Below are positions 8,990 to 45,927 of a stretch of DNA of 64,000 nt, one piece after another. The DNA lies in NCBI GenBank assembly GCA_964508305.1, contig CAZDSX010000002.1:5905-69904 (forward strand). Reading direction: 5' to 3'. The position numbers and the translations under genes are program-made. The stretch comes from an uncultured Bacteriovorax sp. GTDB lineage: Bacteria; Bdellovibrionota; UBA1018. The notes beneath the pieces are model-generated. The model searched no databases. It had not been told where the DNA came from and saw only the letters and a program-made list of their open reading frames with translations. Each line of letters begins with the position of its first letter. The stretch's first letter is position 1.

Positions 8990-10603
8990 TTACTGCTCGA
9001 TCTTCCACGTGTTCACGCCGACGGCGTACTTGAGGGTGTCCTTGCCCTTCTTGAGTCGCTTGGTATTGGCGTAGAGCGTGTACTTGCGGTTGAACATGAA
9101 GCTGTAGGGAGCGTCCTCTGCGATCAGCTCATGGATCTGGTTGAGCATCTTCTGGCGCTTCTTGGCGTCCATGGTGGCGCGCATCTCATCAATGAGCTTG
9201 TCGACCTTGGGGTTGGAGTAACCCACGAAGTTGCTGCCGGGACTTGGGATCGAAGCCGAGTGCCAGATCTGCTTGGGATCGGGCTCAAGGTCACCCACGC
9301 TCCAGCCGAGCGTCACGGCGTCGAACTTGCGCTCATCCAAAAGCTTTACAAAGCTGTTCCATTCGATGGTCTTGATGTTCATCGTGATGCCGAGCTTCTT
9401 CATGTCCTCCTTGACGACCGTCCAGTACTTCTCCCCGTCCTTGTTGGCGTTGAGGAGCGTGAACTCAAAGACGGTTTCCTTGCCGTCGATCACCTTGGTC
9501 ATGCCCTTGGAGCCCATCTTCCAGCCGGCCTTTTCGAGGAGTGTGAGCGCCTTCTTGGAGTCAAACTCCACTGCCTTGACCTTGGGGGAAGTGGCCGAGC
9601 TCTTGTTTCCGAACGGGCCCTTGGCGGCTTCGCTCAGGTCAAAGAGGAACTTCTTGATCATGAACTCGCGATTGACGAGGTGGCTCATGGCCATGCGCAC
9701 ATCACGGTCCTTGAAGAAGGGGTGCCTGAAGTTCCAGCCGATGAAGCCGTAGTTGAAGTTGCTCGGTGCCGAGTTCTCGGCCTTCACGGCTTCGACCTTG
9801 GTGCCCCATTCCGAGCCCTTGGTCTTTTGCATGAACTGCTCGGGCGTAAGCCCGATCATGTCGAGATCACCCTTCTTGAGCATCTCGAGAGCGACGGCCT
9901 CTTCCTTGACGGGGCGGAAGAGGATGCGGTCATAGGAGTAGTAGTTCTTGTAGGCGGGGAGATCCTTTCCGAAGAACTCAGGATTCCTGGCGAGCACGAT
10001 CTTCTGGCCCTTTTCCCAGGTTTCGAGCTTGTAGGGACCACAGCCCACGAGCTGCTTGTTGAACTTGGGGTCCTTGGGGTCGCCCACGCCGTAGAAGTGC
10101 TTGGGGATGATCGTGAGGCCTGCGATCGTGTTGAAGTTCTTGAAGTAAACCTGCTTGGTCTTAAATTCGATCGTGTTTTCGTTCACGATCTTCGCGCCTT
10201 CGATCCCTTCGAGGTAGACGCGGGTCTGCGGCGAATCAAAGCGGCCTTCAAAGTAGACATCAAAGCTGTACTTCACATCTTCTGCGGTGACGGGCTTTCC
10301 GTCATGCCACTTCACGCCCTTGCGGAGCGTAAAGGTGAAGGTCTTGCCGTCCTTGGAGACGGAGTATTTTTCGGCCAGTGCCGGGGTCCACTCGTAGGTC
10401 TCTTCGCTGCGGTCCATGAGCGAGCTGAAGACGTAGGCTTGGACCTGGCTTGCATAGGCGTCGCTCGAGGTGATGGGGTTGAGCGTCGAAGGGTCGGCAC
10501 CGAACTCGAGGTAGAGCGTGCCCTTGTCCGGGGCGGCGAGGGCCGAGACGGTTGCAAGGGTTGAAACGGCAAGACAGAGCACTGCAGCAAGGCGCTTAAG
10601 CAT
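8990..10603 (-). CDS. ABC transporter periplasmic substrate-binding protein, family 5 (OppA/YejA-like)
   Basis: 537 aa with a signal peptide (MLKRLAAVLCLAVSTLATVSALA) and the SBP_bac_5 fold. Confidence 0.8.
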   Translation of the reverse strand: MLKRLAAVLCLAVSTLATVSALAAPDKGTLYLEFGADPSTLNPITSSDAYASQVQAYVFSSLMDRSEETYEWTPALAEKYSVSKDGKTFTFTLRKGVKWHDGKPVTAEDVKYSFDVYFEGRFDSPQTRVYLEGIEGAKIVNENTIEFKTKQVYFKNFNTIAGLTIIPKHFYGVGDPKDPKFNKQLVGCGPYKLETWEKGQKIVLARNPEFFGKDLPAYKNYYSYDRILFRPVKEEAVALEMLKKGDLDMIGLTPEQFMQKTKGSEWGTKVEAVKAENSAPSNFNYGFIGWNFRHPFFKDRDVRMAMSHLVNREFMIKKFLFDLSEAAKGPFGNKSSATSPKVKAVEFDSKKALTLLEKAGWKMGSKGMTKVIDGKETVFEFTLLNANKDGEKYWTVVKEDMKKLGITMNIKTIEWNSFVKLLDERKFDAVTLGWSVGDLEPDPKQIWHSASIPSPGSNFVGYSNPKVDKLIDEMRATMDAKKRQKMLNQIHELIAEDAPYSFMFNRKYTLYANTKRLKKGKDTLKYAVGVNTWKIEQ

Positions 10604-37962: not shown

Positions 37963-38423
37963 GAACGCTCGAATCCTGGTTCGCCGAGTACGGCGAGAGC
38001 CACCGCCATCCCCTGAACAAGAAGATCCACAAGGTCTGCGTACCCCTGATCTTCTTTTCCATCCTGGCCATGCTCCGGGCAATCCCGCGCCCTGAGCTCA
38101 TGTCCGTGGCGCCGGATTGGGCGTTGAACTGGGCGACCCTGAACCTCGTTGGGCCGGTGGTGTTTTATCTCCTCCTTGATCGGGTGCTTTTTGGACTGAT
38201 GCTGGTGCAGATCGCCCTGATGCTGGGTGCCTCCGAACTGTTGTTCCAGGCCTCATGCGGCTTTTCTGTCGGGCTGGCGCTTTTCGTGCTGGCCTGGGCA
38301 GGGCAGTTTTACGGGCATAAGGTCGAGGGCAAAAAGCCCTCCTTCCTCAAGGATCTGGCGTTCCTGCTGATTGGCCCCCTTTGGGTCACGCGCGCGATCC
38401 TTCCGGGCAAAAAAACGACATAA
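37959..38423 (+). CDS. DUF962/Mpo1-like membrane protein
   Basis: 154 aa with four TM segments and an HxxxH-like N-terminal motif ([12 protein letters not shown]). Confidence 0.55.
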
Positions 38424-38472
38424 AATCCGCGCGGTTCAAGTTTTTGGCACCCCCTGCCGATACGTCTTAGGC

Positions 38473-39600
38473 ATGGGTGTGTCCTTGATCCAGCTTTTGC
38501 AGACCATGGTCCAGAACAAGGGTTCTGACCTCCATGTTGCCGTGAACTCGCCTCCGATGATCCGTATCCGAGGCGATATCGTGAAGCTCGGAGTGCCTCC
38601 GCTCACCCAGGCTGACCTCGAGGCCATGCTCAAGCAGTGCGCCCCGGCCGAGCAGATCTCCGTATTCTCCAAGGAAAAGAGCGCGGACTTCGCCTTCAAG
38701 GCTCCCGGAGTCGGCATCTTCCGCGTCAATGCGTTCATGCAGCGACATGGCATTTCACTCGTCATGCGAGTGCTGGCAGAGAATCCACCGACCCTGAAGG
38801 AACTCAACCTCCCTTCGATCTGCCAGACGGCCTGCTCGTACGCCAACGGGCTCGTGCTGGTCACCGGACCCACGGGTTCGGGCAAGTCCACGACGCTGGC
38901 TGCGATGATCAATCACATCAACATGACGACACCCGGGCACATCCTCACGCTCGAGGATCCGATCGAATTCCAGCATGACAGCAAGATGGGGATGGTCAGC
39001 CAGCGTGCCCTGGGCTCACACTTTCCAAACTTTGCATCTGCAATGAAGGCTGCCCTTCGCGAGGACCCGGATGTGATCCTCGTAGGCGAAATGCGTGATG
39101 CCGAGACGGTCGCCCTTGCGCTCAAGGCTGCCGAGACCGGGCACCTCGTGTTCTCCACGCTCCATACCAACTCGGCACCGAAAACCATTGACCGCATCAT
39201 CAATACTTTTCCGGCCGAAGAGCAGAACCAGATCCGCACGGTGCTTGCCGAGACCCTCAAGGTCGTCATTTCGCAGAAGCTCGTGCCGTCTGCGGACAAA
39301 AAACGCCGCATCTGCTTCCAGGACATCTTCGTGAACAATGCCGCCGGGTCCAACCTCATTCGCGAGGGCAAGACCTTCCAACTCACCACCGTGATGCAGA
39401 CGGGCCGCAAGGAAGGGATGGTCATGCTGGATCAGGCCCTGCTCGAGGCGGTTCGCTCCGGCGAGGTGGCAGGCGAGGATGGCTGGGAGTACGCCAACGA
39501 CAAGAACATGTTCGCCCAGTGGGCTCCCAAGGCCGGTGCCGACGCGACTGCTGCGGCGGCCGCCTCTGCTTCCTCGAGCCCGCTCAAAAAGGCCGGCTGA
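38473..39600 (+). CDS. pilT: Type IV pilus retraction ATPase PilT
   Basis: N-terminus GSDLHVAVNSPPMIRIRGD, Walker A GPTGSGKST, Asp box, Walker B, and His box AHLVFSTLHTNSA. Start is the internal ATG of ORF 38371..39600. Confidence 0.85.
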   Translation: MGVSLIQLLQTMVQNKGSDLHVAVNSPPMIRIRGDIVKLGVPPLTQADLEAMLKQCAPAEQISVFSKEKSADFAFKAPGVGIFRVNAFMQRHGISLVMRVLAENPPTLKELNLPSICQTACSYANGLVLVTGPTGSGKSTTLAAMINHINMTTPGHILTLEDPIEFQHDSKMGMVSQRALGSHFPNFASAMKAALREDPDVILVGEMRDAETVALALKAAETGHLVFSTLHTNSAPKTIDRIINTFPAEEQNQIRTVLAETLKVVISQKLVPSADKKRRICFQDIFVNNAAGSNLIREGKTFQLTTVMQTGRKEGMVMLDQALLEAVRSGEVAGEDGWEYANDKNMFAQWAPKAGADATAAAAASASSSPLKKAG

Positions 39601-40613: not shown

Positions 40614-41849
40614 GTGAAGCAAATCCGTTGGCGCGTGATCACCCACGCATCTGAACTCATCACGGCGGCAGGTATCGCCCGGAAGTCGGGCCGTCGCCCA
40701 TTGGATGAGGACATGGGTCGGGTTGCAGATGGCGCGATGGTCTATAGCCTCAAGAAGGTCGGCAAGCAGGACGTGCCGGACCGTATCCTCTGGATCGGGA
40801 CATCGAGCGATCTTCCAAAGAAGTTCAAGGATCCGAGGCGAACCCAGGACCTGCGTGGAAAGAAGGCGCTGATCCCGGGACTTGTGGACTGCCACACCCA
40901 TCTCGTTTTTGCAGGCGACCGAGCCGAAGAGTTTGCGCGTCGTTGCGGAGGGGTGAGCTACCAGCAGATCGCCACCGAGGGTGGGGGGATACTCACCACC
41001 GTCAAGGCCACGCGCAAGGCCGGTCCTGCCGAGCTCCTGAGGCTTGCGAAGGCTCGCGTGAAGGAATCCATGTCCTTCGGCGTGCGGACCATCGAGCTCA
41101 AGAGCGGCTATGGGTTGGATGAGGCCACCGAGCTCAAGCAGCTGCAGGTGGCAAGGCAGCTGCAAAAGTTCTTCCCCGAGGTCACCTTCCAATCCACTTA
41201 CCTGGGCGCCCATGCCGTGCCGCAGGGGAGGGGTCGCGACGATTATGTGCGCGAGATCGTGCAGCAGACCCTCCCAAAGGTTGCGCAGCAGGGGCTTGCC
41301 GATGCGGTCGATGTCTTTGTGGACGAGGGATATTTCGAGCCCTCCGACGCGAGGATGATCCTGGCCGAAGCTCGCAAGCTTGGCCTTGGGATCAAGCTCC
41401 ATGCCGATGAGCTGGGCAATACCGAGTCGGCCGCACTGGCCTGTGAGCTGGGGGCACTTTCGGCGGATCACCTCCTGCGAGTATCGGAGGCGGGAATTCG
41501 GGCACTGGCTCGCTCCAAGACCACTGCAGTGCTGCTCCCGGGGACGGCCTACTACCTGCGTGCCGAGCACGCACCGGCGCGCAAGCTCATCGATGCCGGG
41601 GTCCGTGTTGCCATCTCGACTGACTTCAATCCGGGTACGTGCATGACCCTGAACCTGCCGCTGGTGCTCAATATCGCGGCACTCTACCTTGGGATGACCC
41701 GTGCGGAACTTCTTGCATCGGTCACGTACAATGCGGCTTGCGCGCTGGGGATGGAGGACAGGCGTGGAAGCCTTGAGGTCGGAAAAGACGCGGCCTTTGC
41801 GGTACTTCCATACGCGAGATTCGAGGAGATGTATTACCGGCTGGGCTGA
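40614..41849 (+). CDS. hutI: Imidazolonepropionase
   Basis: Amidohydrolase with metal-binding HTH (LVDCHTHLVF) and HutI-type sequence. GTG start. Confidence 0.85.
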   Translation: MKQIRWRVITHASELITAAGIARKSGRRPLDEDMGRVADGAMVYSLKKVGKQDVPDRILWIGTSSDLPKKFKDPRRTQDLRGKKALIPGLVDCHTHLVFAGDRAEEFARRCGGVSYQQIATEGGGILTTVKATRKAGPAELLRLAKARVKESMSFGVRTIELKSGYGLDEATELKQLQVARQLQKFFPEVTFQSTYLGAHAVPQGRGRDDYVREIVQQTLPKVAQQGLADAVDVFVDEGYFEPSDARMILAEARKLGLGIKLHADELGNTESAALACELGALSADHLLRVSEAGIRALARSKTTAVLLPGTAYYLRAEHAPARKLIDAGVRVAISTDFNPGTCMTLNLPLVLNIAALYLGMTRAELLASVTYNAACALGMEDRRGSLEVGKDAAFAVLPYARFEEMYYRLG

Positions 41850-42484
41850 CCGGCCTGCTCGAGCCAGGCCTTTGCCTTGGTCGTGAAGGCCGGGTGCATC
41901 CAGTCTCGATCTCCGGCGACCTTCTCGAGGATTTTTCGAGATCCATCCACGATCACGGTGAGCGGGATCGCATGGACATCGAAGGCATCCCCGAGCTTTC
42001 CGTCGGCGTCGGTGAAGTTCTGGAATTTCATTCCAAATTCGGCTGCCGTGGATGCAATCGCCTGGGAGGGTTTTTCATCCAGGTTGATCCCGATCACTTC
42101 GAGCCCGTGCTGTTTGTACTCTTCATGGAGCTTCACCAGCGAGGGCATCTCTTCCATGCAGGCCTCACACCAGGTGGCCCAAAAATTGATCAACATCACT
42201 TTGGCCGGGATGCTCGAAAGCAGTGCCTTGGTCCCATCGGTCCGCGTGAGTTCAAGGTCAGGAAGCGTGTTGCCCGCCTTGAGCTCGATGATCGACCGGC
42301 CTGCCGGTTTGTTTTGCGCCACCTGTGATTTGAGGAAGCTCAAGGCTCCCCAGGTCACGCCCAGGATGAGCAGGATGGGGACCAGGATCGTCTTGAGGCT
42401 GGTCTTGGGATTCGTCTTGGAGTTTGCCTGGGAATTCGTCAGGGGTGTCGGACTGTTGGGCTCGGTCGGCACTTGGCTTGTCAT
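41834..42484 (-). CDS. TlpA/ResA-like thiol-disulfide oxidoreductase (thioredoxin fold, membrane-anchored)
   Basis: WCEAC active site, N-terminal TM anchor, Pro/Thr/Asn-rich leader. Confidence 0.75.
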   Translation of the reverse strand: MTSQVPTEPNSPTPLTNSQANSKTNPKTSLKTILVPILLILGVTWGALSFLKSQVAQNKPAGRSIIELKAGNTLPDLELTRTDGTKALLSSIPAKVMLINFWATWCEACMEEMPSLVKLHEEYKQHGLEVIGINLDEKPSQAIASTAAEFGMKFQNFTDADGKLGDAFDVHAIPLTVIVDGSRKILEKVAGDRDWMHPAFTTKAKAWLEQAGQPSR

Positions 42485-42513
42485 GTCTCCTGAGAATACC
42501 CTAAAATGAAGGG

Positions 42514-42693
42514 ATGAAACAGTCGTCCGGCCAGGCAGTCGTTGAGTATGTGCTCATGCTGGTGCTGGCCATCGCACTGGTCGCAGTGATCAATGGATCA
42601 TTGAGCGGATCGGTGCGAAACCTCTGGCGGGCGCTCGTGAGCGACGTGGCCGCGCCCTGCCCCCGATGCCCCGTGGTCAACCCGATTCGCTGA
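42514..42693 (+). CDS. Flp/Fap-family type IVb pilin-like small protein (59 aa; absent from the supplied ORF track because <60 aa)
   Basis: MKQSSGQAVVEYVLMLVLAIALVAVINGSLSGSVRNLW matches the Flp prepilin pattern G|xxxxEY followed by a hydrophobic helix. AAGGGA SD 5 nt upstream. Confidence 0.55.
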   Translation: MKQSSGQAVVEYVLMLVLAIALVAVINGSLSGSVRNLWRALVSDVAAPCPRCPVVNPIR

Positions 42694-43282
42694 CCTTGTA
42701 GTTCATCCCCACCAGGAAGATTTCCTTGCTCTCGGTCCTGGTGCTCTTGGGGCGGAGGATCTCCACCTTGTCGAAGTGCATGCGCATCTGTGCGCGGAAT
42801 CCCTCGAACTCATCGCTATGGAAGAACTTGGCGATGAAAGTCCCCTTGGGTTTGAGGAATCGGTGGGCCGTTTCCAGCGCAAGCTCGCAGAGCTCCAGTG
42901 ATCGCATCTGGTCCTGCAGCTTGATTCCGGTGGTCCTCGGCGCCATGTCCGACATCACGATGTCAAACGGAGGCGTGAAACCGTGTTTCTGGATGATCTC
43001 TCCGAGGTTCACGTCGCGCAGATCCGCCTGGATGAACACGGCATTGAAGAGGCTGATCTTGATCTCCTGGAGGTCGATCCCGAGCACGCGCCCCTGCTTG
43101 CCGAGCTTTTTTGATGCATACTGTGACCAGGAGCCCGGCGCGGCGCCAAGGTCAAGGACCTGCATTCCAGGGCGGAAAATCTTGTAGCGCTTGTCCATTT
43201 CCTCGAGCTTGAACGCGGACCGAGCAGCGTAGTTCTCGGATTTTGCCTTGTGGAAATAGTAGTCCTTGAGGTTGTAGGCCAT
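42677..43282 (-). CDS. rlmE: 23S rRNA (uridine2552-2'-O)-methyltransferase RlmE/FtsJ
   Basis: SAM-binding LDLGAAPGSWSQ motif and K-D-K-E catalytic residues in context. Confidence 0.85.
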   Translation of the reverse strand: MAYNLKDYYFHKAKSENYAARSAFKLEEMDKRYKIFRPGMQVLDLGAAPGSWSQYASKKLGKQGRVLGIDLQEIKISLFNAVFIQADLRDVNLGEIIQKHGFTPPFDIVMSDMAPRTTGIKLQDQMRSLELCELALETAHRFLKPKGTFIAKFFHSDEFEGFRAQMRMHFDKVEILRPKSTRTESKEIFLVGMNYKVSESG

Positions 43283-43285
43283 GGC

Positions 43286-45927
<2,642 letters not shown>

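Follow-up and report, generated by a model that had tools for sequence, protein, structure and literature searches.

A Cys-tailed Flp1-like mini-protein gene adjoining a TlpA-like oxidoreductase gene in Bdellovibrionota

The small gene at 42514..42693

In a 64,000-nucleotide stretch of DNA from an uncultured Bacteriovorax sp. (contig CAZDSX010000002.1; hereafter the window), a short open reading frame (ORF) at 42514..42693 on the plus strand, with an ATG start and 59 codons ahead of a stop included in these coordinates, is predicted to encode a small Flp1-like protein with a Cys-containing tail. Its translation is identical to the sequence quoted in a preliminary description of this DNA, which had proposed a Flp-type pilin gene at this position. 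As stated there, the gene lies between a gene for a TlpA-like oxidoreductase (41834..42484, minus strand) and rlmE/FtsJ (42677..43282, minus strand), and it overlaps the 3' end of rlmE convergently, by 17 nt (42677..42693). The high G+C content that had been ascribed to its third codon positions is also real (GC3 0.77 vs. GC2 0.47 over the 59 codons). By a six-frame scan, it is the sole ORF in the window that combines the motif G-x4-E-[YF] with a hydrophobic stretch.

A search of 5.8 billion proteins identified eight homologs of 51-61 residues with 64-100% identity to the window protein, and their contigs show the small gene (plus strand) in the same slot, next to a TlpA-like gene (minus) on one side and rlmE, a PilZ-like gene and mreB (all minus) on the other. 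The orthologs that hold this position in related Oligoflexia/Bdellovibrionota genomes have 64-90% identity. In codon-aligned orthologs the synonymous sites are saturated, the proportion of synonymous differences (pS) being 0.64-0.86 and that of nonsynonymous differences (pN) 0.14-0.24. The ratio of the corresponding rates, dN/dS, is 0.10-0.17 for the orthologs where dS was estimable, and the differences fall mostly at the third codon position (14/11/32 to 17/13/41 for positions 1/2/3). The small ORF is a genuine gene under purifying selection. Its short length, its overlap with the 3' end of rlmE, the lack of a curated family match and the lack of an NCBI accession for this genome would all suit a chance ORF that lies opposite or between real genes and has no product. 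We consider such an origin extremely improbable, because the protein is conserved despite saturation at synonymous sites and because hundreds of homologs share a rigid spacing of motifs; the promoter described below is conserved as well. As to the suggestion that the gene is unlisted, the exact protein is present in a public collection from an NCBI genome, where it has neither accession nor name. Annotated orthologs are termed "hypothetical protein" or are nameless at NCBI, and JGI labels some of them "Flp pilus assembly pilin Flp."

Protein architecture, family and relationship to Flp pilins

The window protein begins with a predicted class III (prepilin-type) leader, M1-G6 (MKQSSG, 42514..42531), with predicted cleavage after Gly6 and Gln at position +1. 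It reads MKQSSG|QAVVEY and then VLMLVLAIALVAVI, so that the mature species would have 53 residues. The leader is followed by a predicted long α-helix (42532..42648), hydrophobic and α1N-like at first and then amphipathic, the latter segment bearing a near-invariant Trp38 (42625..42627). Beyond the helix is the sequence C-P-R-C (Cys49, Pro50, Cys52; 42658..42669), an instance of the C-P-x-C that marks the family, after which come Pro and a short tail (PVVNPIR). AlphaFold2 (AF2), run with the family alignment, modeled one helix spanning residues 5-45, with a predicted local distance difference test score (pLDDT) above 90 in the core, a mean of 85.9, and a less ordered Cys tail. A Foldseek search of this model against the PDB gave no matches, a single helix being uninformative in such a search, and comparison of the family profile to PDB sequences gave only noise in the form of designed helical repeats. 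NCBIfam held nothing meaningful for either the window protein or the family.

To define the family, a profile of the eight orthologs was searched against 1.84 billion representative proteins, which gave 202 representative matches at E ≤ 1e-3, nearly all of them 56-100 residues long. Their shared architecture consists of a variable net-basic leader, the motif G-Q-A-x-V-E-Y and a hydrophobic helix of ~20 residues, followed by an amphipathic segment with Trp, the sequence A-(A/P)-C-P-x-C, usually with Pro after it, and a short variable tail. The Gly and Gln are invariant, Glu is found at +5 in 229 of 231 members, and +6 is Tyr or Phe; the residues ahead of the Gly favor D/N, E/Q and S across the 231 members, similar to the D-E-S of Caulobacter PilA. 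The distance from the Gly to the Trp is 32 residues in 227/231 members, and that from the Gly to C-P-x-C is 43 residues in 188/231; the remainder carry four Cys, and in these an upstream Cys had been taken as the match. Four Cys occur in 47 of the 231. In the family alignment (A2) the first Cys is invariant, and the Glu, Leu, Trp, Pro50, and Cys52 are each kept in at least 90% of sequences. The leader and the tail are free to differ in length among members, and the core is without insertions or deletions, a pattern which fits a cleaved leader joined to a structurally constrained mature domain.

Two members stand out. In an Oligoflexia metagenome-assembled genome (ErkenSummer_bin-2104), the ortholog at 1888..2070 of locus L015 reads ..VAPRPKCP.., which is due to a loss of the Cys pair in nature or else to misassembly. 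Protein P0219 (121 residues; 10001..10366 of locus L013) carries three tandem near-copies (GGQARSTE, GGQARSTE, and KAGQARFRE) in its leader ahead of GQAIVEY, an arrangement which suggests that the processing site was duplicated locally.

The 55 reference-genome loci that carry the N-terminal motif all belong to the Bdellovibrionota (Oligoflexia, Bdellovibrionia, Bacteriovoracaceae, and Pseudobdellovibrio), as do all source names that we saw, with the proviso that the locus search used a narrow alignment (A3) that recovers only exact GQA[VI]VEY[VI]L and misses other members, possibly including those of cultured B. bacteriovorus. The same N-terminus is found in other proteins of the phylum. In Bdellovibrio and Pseudobdellovibrio it opens proteins of ~280-330 residues (loci L032-L036, L039-L043, L045, L048, L051, L053-L054, L056-L063, and L065-L068) in which GQAVVEYIL is followed by Y-x-G-x-Y-x-x-C-L-x-x-G-E-L-P, a long low-complexity region of Ser, Gly, and Asn, and a C-terminal transmembrane helix (..IIFFGGQ..NYSNS); these apparently constitute a separate uncharacterized family. 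A small family of ~90-100 residues ends in ..FRIFINPPIN (L038, L047, L064, and L069), and a family of 74 residues has four to five Cys (..CxLHxMW...CDII.PYP...CxPxKxCF; L044, L049, L050, and L052). These additional small families point to a large and diverse repertoire of proteins with G-Q-type class III signals in the Bdellovibrionota.

The Flp hallmark that the preliminary description had seen in the window protein, G-x4-E-Y and then a hydrophobic helix, is present and in register with that of PilA. A search with PF04964 (Flp_Fap), the model it had named as the means of confirmation, returned no match for the window protein even at E ≤ 10. To put this result in context, we compared the 57 family members and two control pilins with several pilin models, for which the gathering scores are 32.2 bits (PF04964), 33.5 bits (PF16982, Flp1_like) and 23.7 bits (PF04021, Class_IIIsignal). 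Sub-threshold matches among the 57 members were to Flp1_like in 25, Class_IIIsignal in 18, TadE in seven, DUF4244 in four, and Flp_Fap in two, a single theme of Tad and archaeal class III signal families. The best E-values were 3.2e-6 for PF16982, with all matches under the cutoff in our Pfam scan although a few members bear a precomputed PF16982.11 label, 7.7e-6 for PF04021, where the top individual score was 18.8 bits, and 0.022 for PF04964. PF07963 matched neither the window protein nor any of the 57 members, and the residue at +1 is Gln rather than Phe or Met, so that the protein does not present as a type IVa pilin.

The controls were the PilA of Caulobacter, which scored 78 bits on PF04964, and B. 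bacteriovorus Flp1 (Bd0119, with its sequence taken from Table S3 of PMC5430801), which failed PF04964 at 15.1 bits and passed PF16982 at 39.5 bits. As an experimentally studied Flp1 also fails PF04964, failure of this model is to be expected for pilins of the Bdellovibrionota. Profile comparison by hhalign placed the family profile (A2) in register with Bd0119 at both G-Q and E-Y (96.0%, E 3.9e-9, 36 columns) and, also in register, with a Caulobacter-type Flp profile (73.7%, E 2.9e-5, 58 columns), with the caveat taken up below that such scores are inflated for hydrophobic helices. We take these sequence comparisons to mean that the N-terminal half and Flp1-type prepilins are homologous. Cys is absent from both Bd0119 and the canonical Flp set, and the C-terminal half with the Trp and C-P-x-C is without counterpart there. 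The designation "Flp-type pilin" is thus apt for the N-terminus, as judged by the motif and hhalign, and does not extend to formal family membership, the protein falling short of the thresholds of both PF04964 and PF16982.

Promoters, neighbors and window context

The preliminary description had assigned the gene a good Shine-Dalgarno sequence, AAGGGA. This sequence touches the start codon with no spacer, its final A being the A of the ATG, and orthologs carry unrelated bases at this position; we rejected it as a ribosome-binding site on both grounds. A promoter scan identified a sigma-70-like promoter at 42478..42507 on the plus strand, composed of a -35 element TTGTCA (42478..42483), an 18-nt spacer, and a -10 element TAAAAT (42502..42507) that ends 6 nt upstream of the ATG. 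The arrangement TTGTCA-18-TAAAAT is kept in exact register across orthologs, the consensus across TlpA-paired loci being TTGTCA-18-TA[ACG]AAT, and a -10-like hexamer lies 5-9 nt upstream of an in-frame start in 22 of 24 TlpA-paired loci (background 3%). From the position of the -10, transcription is predicted to start at or next to the ATG, and the mRNA of the small gene is probably leaderless, beginning at the ATG itself.

The -35 of the small gene shares nucleotides with the start codon of the TlpA-like gene, and a candidate -10 of the TlpA-like gene, TATTCT on the minus strand (42493..42498), lies 8 nt before its ATG. TAnnnT was found 8 nt upstream of the putative TlpA start in most loci, with start codons having been assigned heuristically. 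This suggests that the 29-30 bp gap contains two back-to-back, nearly leaderless promoters. The apparent promoter pair is seen at 42478..42513 of the window and in the equivalent gap of loci L001, L015, L018, L021-L024, L026, and L029-L031: each -35 overlaps the first codons of the other gene, each -10 sits 6-8 nt from its own start codon, and the sequence CTTGTCAT ... ATGA[AG]ACAG is nearly palindromic. Both the TlpA-like gene and the small gene may therefore be leaderless.

The divergent partner (41834..42484) encodes a TlpA/ResA/DsbE-like thiol-disulfide oxidoreductase whose translation has an N-terminal hydrophobic segment ILVPILLILGVTWGALSFL, as a putative membrane anchor, and a WCEAC active site. 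It matched the thioredoxin-fold Pfam families Redoxin (77 bits, 1.7e-21) and AhpC-TSA (76 bits, 3e-21). As its NCBIfam scores are below the equivalog cutoffs (ResA 92.8 bits, cutoff 170; TlpA 68.7 bits, cutoff 230), we consider it a generic relative of ResA, TlpA and DsbE rather than an equivalog of any of these. In the window, 29 bp separate it from the small gene. In 22 of 26 family loci the gene immediately upstream, in divergent orientation, is TlpA-like, and this holds across TlpA identities of 32-62%. The downstream neighbor varies; rlmE accounts for about half of the loci, and RibD_C, DAGAT or an unknown gene is found there in the others. Hence the conserved partner is the TlpA-like gene and not rlmE. 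The overlap with rlmE is 4-11 nt or absent in orthologs, and as the downstream neighbor changes among loci we rejected a functional meaning for it. The flanking junctions (hutI-tlpA, which PAP2 interrupts, and flp-rlmE) are broken in about half of the TlpA-paired loci.

In the loci without an adjacent TlpA-like gene, which form a subclade (B) with the sequence KGQAxxEYxLxVIMxAVTxAV.IRN...PCPxC..AAP (L012 9299..10192, L014 9256..10216, L025, and L027), the small gene lies 19-34 nt downstream, on the same strand, of a gene for a CPBP (Rce1-like) intramembrane glutamic endopeptidase. This protease, which takes the place of the TlpA-like gene, is weakly similar to sorting proteases of the myxosortase/MrtJ type and might serve as a processing partner instead.

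Pfam scans of essentially all window ORFs bear out the earlier statement that the window has no tadV/cpaA, rcpA or tadABC genes, as peptidase A24, T2SSF (TadB/C), secretin, CpaB/RcpC, TadE, and TadZ were not found. The gene was correctly termed orphaned from tad. The principle has precedent in the non-TAD flp genes of Bdellovibrio and like organisms, and association with tad does not strictly define an flp gene, unlinked ones having been documented (PMC5430801). Type IV-related content of the window comprises only a PilT/PilU ATPase and proteins with prepilin-type N_methyl termini; because these are type IVa components, a PilD-type peptidase is likely to be encoded somewhere in the genome. Other recognizable content includes hut genes and a dcw cluster.

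The PilT/PilU type IVa retraction ATPase is encoded at 38371..39600 on the plus strand (TIGR01420, 434 bits vs. a cutoff of 319), 3 kb upstream of the small gene, and is isolated, being flanked by an Mpo1-like gene and a GDSL lipase gene. Its real start is probably ~38 codons downstream of the listed TTG, and its ortholog is present in one related contig and absent from others. Toward the start of the window, three consecutive ORFs on the plus strand (2283..3506, 3482..4912, and 4741..6786, the last with a true start probably near 4900) encode large, very Cys-rich proteins that are predicted to be secreted. Two of the three begin with prepilin-type N-termini (..RHGFSLIEIMIAL.. and ..SPGFSLIELLISA..; PF07963, E 1.7e-8), the PF07963 matches being located in the ORFs at 3482..6786, and the Cys-rich ORFs had no other Pfam or NCBIfam matches; their products resemble type IVa minor pilins or pseudopilins of giant size. 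Between rlmE and mreB, in a position kept in several relatives, an ORF at 43286..44026 (minus strand) encodes a 246-residue protein with a weak, below-cutoff PilZ match (19.3 bits), and this may be a cyclic di-GMP-binding protein tied to the cell-shape locus.

Interpretation and comparison with known systems

The closest known counterpart of the window protein is Flp1 (Bd0119) of B. bacteriovorus, a type IVb pilin encoded in the TAD locus, which was detected by mass spectrometry and is needed for predation (PMC5430801). The family of the window protein and Flp1, from the same phylum, share a leader that ends in ..E-S-G, Gln at +1, Glu-Tyr at +5/+6, a helix of I/V-L-L/M-L character and a length of ~60 residues, and the Bd0119 cleavage site, G|QGATEY, aligns with the motif in the window protein. 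In contrast to the window protein, Flp1 lacks the Trp/C-P-x-C module, is encoded inside the TAD operon and is under FliA control; the window gene, for its part, has a TlpA-like neighbor and a sigma-70-like leaderless promoter. Canonical Flp/Fap pilins such as PilA of Caulobacter vibrioides, whose site G|ATAIEY also aligns with the window motif, and Flp1 of Aggregatibacter resemble the window protein in size, in the sequence ..DESG|xxxxEY, and in having an α1N helix followed by an amphipathic segment. They differ from it in that the window protein has no PF04964 match, has Gln rather than Ala or Val at +1, has the conserved Trp and C-P-x-C, gives one continuous helix in AF2, and is encoded outside a tad/cpa operon.

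Small G-x4-E-Y pilin genes off the TAD locus, often unannotated and conserved in synteny, have precedents in the same phylum. Among the non-TAD flp genes of Bdellovibrio and like organisms, flp3 (bd3297) is silent, and flp4 ("bd4000"), which was itself an unlisted ORF, is essential for predation (PMC5430801). Our comparison with flp3 and flp4 is by locus description rather than by sequence, and flp4 differs from the window gene in adjoining bd2719, an RHS-element gene (PMC3818213), rather than tlpA or rlmE. The Tad-like predation apparatus Kil of Myxococcus xanthus has as its major Flp pilin KilP, which is unlinked to the Kil machinery, with PilD proposed as its processor (PMC12075869). TadV has been reported to be absent from Bdellovibrio genomes, and promiscuity of the PilD type has been proposed for predators (PMC5430801, PMC12075869). 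The window protein is similar to KilP, as far as can be compared by description, in being a predator's Flp-type protein encoded away from its machinery and in probably needing a prepilin peptidase that is not its own (PilD). KilP differs in its greater length (it has a residue 96), in having been shown to polymerize, and in that no Cys motif or TlpA pairing has been reported for it.

We favor, with moderate confidence, the interpretation that the gene produces a genuine, expressed, Bdellovibrionota-specific Flp1-like (Tad/type IVb class) prepilin-like mini-protein. Leader cleavage, membrane topology, filament assembly and redox coupling are parts of this interpretation that we infer as follows. 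The gene would be transcribed from the conserved sigma-70-type promoter as a leaderless mRNA, and the class III signal and hydrophobic helix would guide the product into the inner membrane. A prepilin peptidase, either TadV-type or the PilD needed by the type IVa pilins of the genome, would then remove the basic leader after Gly6 to yield a 53-residue mature protein that starts with Gln and forms one long α-helix. The amphipathic segment with its Trp, and with it the C-P-x-C tail, would be exposed in the periplasm or on the surface of the filament, where the redox state of the Cys pair would most likely be set by the divergently encoded, membrane-anchored TlpA/ResA-like thioredoxin, and the mature protein would be built into, prime or cap a Tad-type filament whose machinery is encoded elsewhere.

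Oxidoreductases of the TlpA/ResA/CcmG type have dedicated substrates, as for TlpA with ScoI/CoxB and ResA with apocytochrome c. The partner here is likewise a membrane-anchored thioredoxin fold with a WCxxC, and by analogy a client with a Cys pair encoded next door would fit, although no enzyme of this type is known to have a pilin-like client. A bolder extension is that the family represents a redox-gated pilin across the phylum, in which C-P-x-C makes the protein a dedicated TlpA client, a thiol/disulfide switch governs polymerizing, cross-linking or capping of a Tad filament in prey attack, and the CPBP protease replaces the thioredoxin as the processing partner in a second lineage. This we regard as a speculative and rather improbable proposal.

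A number of observations weigh against the prepilin-like interpretation, or against its redox component. The window protein scores 18.4 bits on PF16982 (E 0.0015, residues 2-41), short of the cutoff of 33.5, and reaches no curated family threshold in NCBIfam or for PF04964. Only the N-terminal 36 residues fit Flp1 well in hhalign, in which hydrophobic-helix scores are inflated by composition. No Tad genes were found within 6-10 kb in any of the 26 related loci. Arg replaces the first Cys in the L015 ortholog, and the four subclade B loci of the 26 keep C-P-x-C without an adjacent TlpA. Moreover, all 22 TlpA-paired loci share one ancestral housekeeping synteny block, and because of this and of a 29-bp two-promoter gap that would not tolerate insertions, the TlpA adjacency could be passive.

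It is conceivable that the protein is not a filament subunit, and that its Flp-like N-terminus, cleaved or uncleaved, is only the membrane anchor of a small bitopic inner-membrane protein that offers a periplasmic C-P-x-C to the TlpA/ResA-like thioredoxin; its role could then be that of a redox relay or substrate, or of a Cu/Zn-handling partner, in envelope biogenesis. We consider this possible, if on balance unlikely. The gene is always outside tad loci, nearly always TlpA-paired, and set in housekeeping surroundings (hut, rlmE, mreB, and dcw genes), while C-P-x-C resembles DsbA/glutaredoxin-type and zinc-knuckle motifs, there are weak matches to the DUF2614 zinc ribbon, and the Cys content, rising to four in some members, is foreign to canonical Flp pilins and Bd0119. 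Yet the invariant G-Q...E-Y preceded by variable leaders is the signature of a peptidase site and not of a plain anchor, the N-terminus is homologous to that of a validated pilin, subclade B retains C-P-x-C with no TlpA alongside, and we found no matches to known redox or metal families.

Alternatively, the gene may encode an ordinary unlinked Flp pilin, major or minor, whose Cys pair is a structural disulfide and whose neighborhood is accidental, the TlpA-like protein having an unrelated job in cytochrome c or Cu-center maturation and the two genes remaining paired through their shared 29-bp bidirectional promoter region. The single conserved synteny block, the overlapping -35s and start codons that leave no space for insertions, and the unpaired subclade B would all suit such a pilin, as would the fact that non-TAD flp genes are normal in the phylum. 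We nonetheless judge it improbable, as both flanking junctions broke repeatedly whereas the TlpA junction never did across TlpA identities of 32-62%, and as the two proteins are predicted to present their CxxC motifs to the same side of the membrane.

Flp pilins, Flp1_like and the non-TAD flp genes of Bdellovibrio and like organisms were already known. A literature search on Flp1_like (PF16982) returned nothing. What is new is a rigid phylum-wide subfamily with a C-terminal Trp/C-P-x-C module, its near-universal pairing with a TlpA-like gene, or with a CPBP protease gene in one lineage, and a conserved leaderless promoter, in a family that the curated models miss at Pfam and NCBIfam thresholds. 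The invariant Trp/C-P-x-C module, the TlpA-like partner, the restriction to Bdellovibrionota and the probably leaderless mRNA were all absent from the preliminary description. Adhesion depends centrally on Flp/Tad pilins, as does prey killing in bacterial predators, and small genes of this kind are routinely overlooked or annotated only as "hypothetical." Should the redox link prove real, this would be the first dedicated pair of a thiol oxidoreductase and a Tad pilin and would provide a handle on the regulation of predator pili. Even without that link, the family signature, together with the calibration by which PF04964 misses validated Flp pilins of the phylum, is of direct use for annotation.

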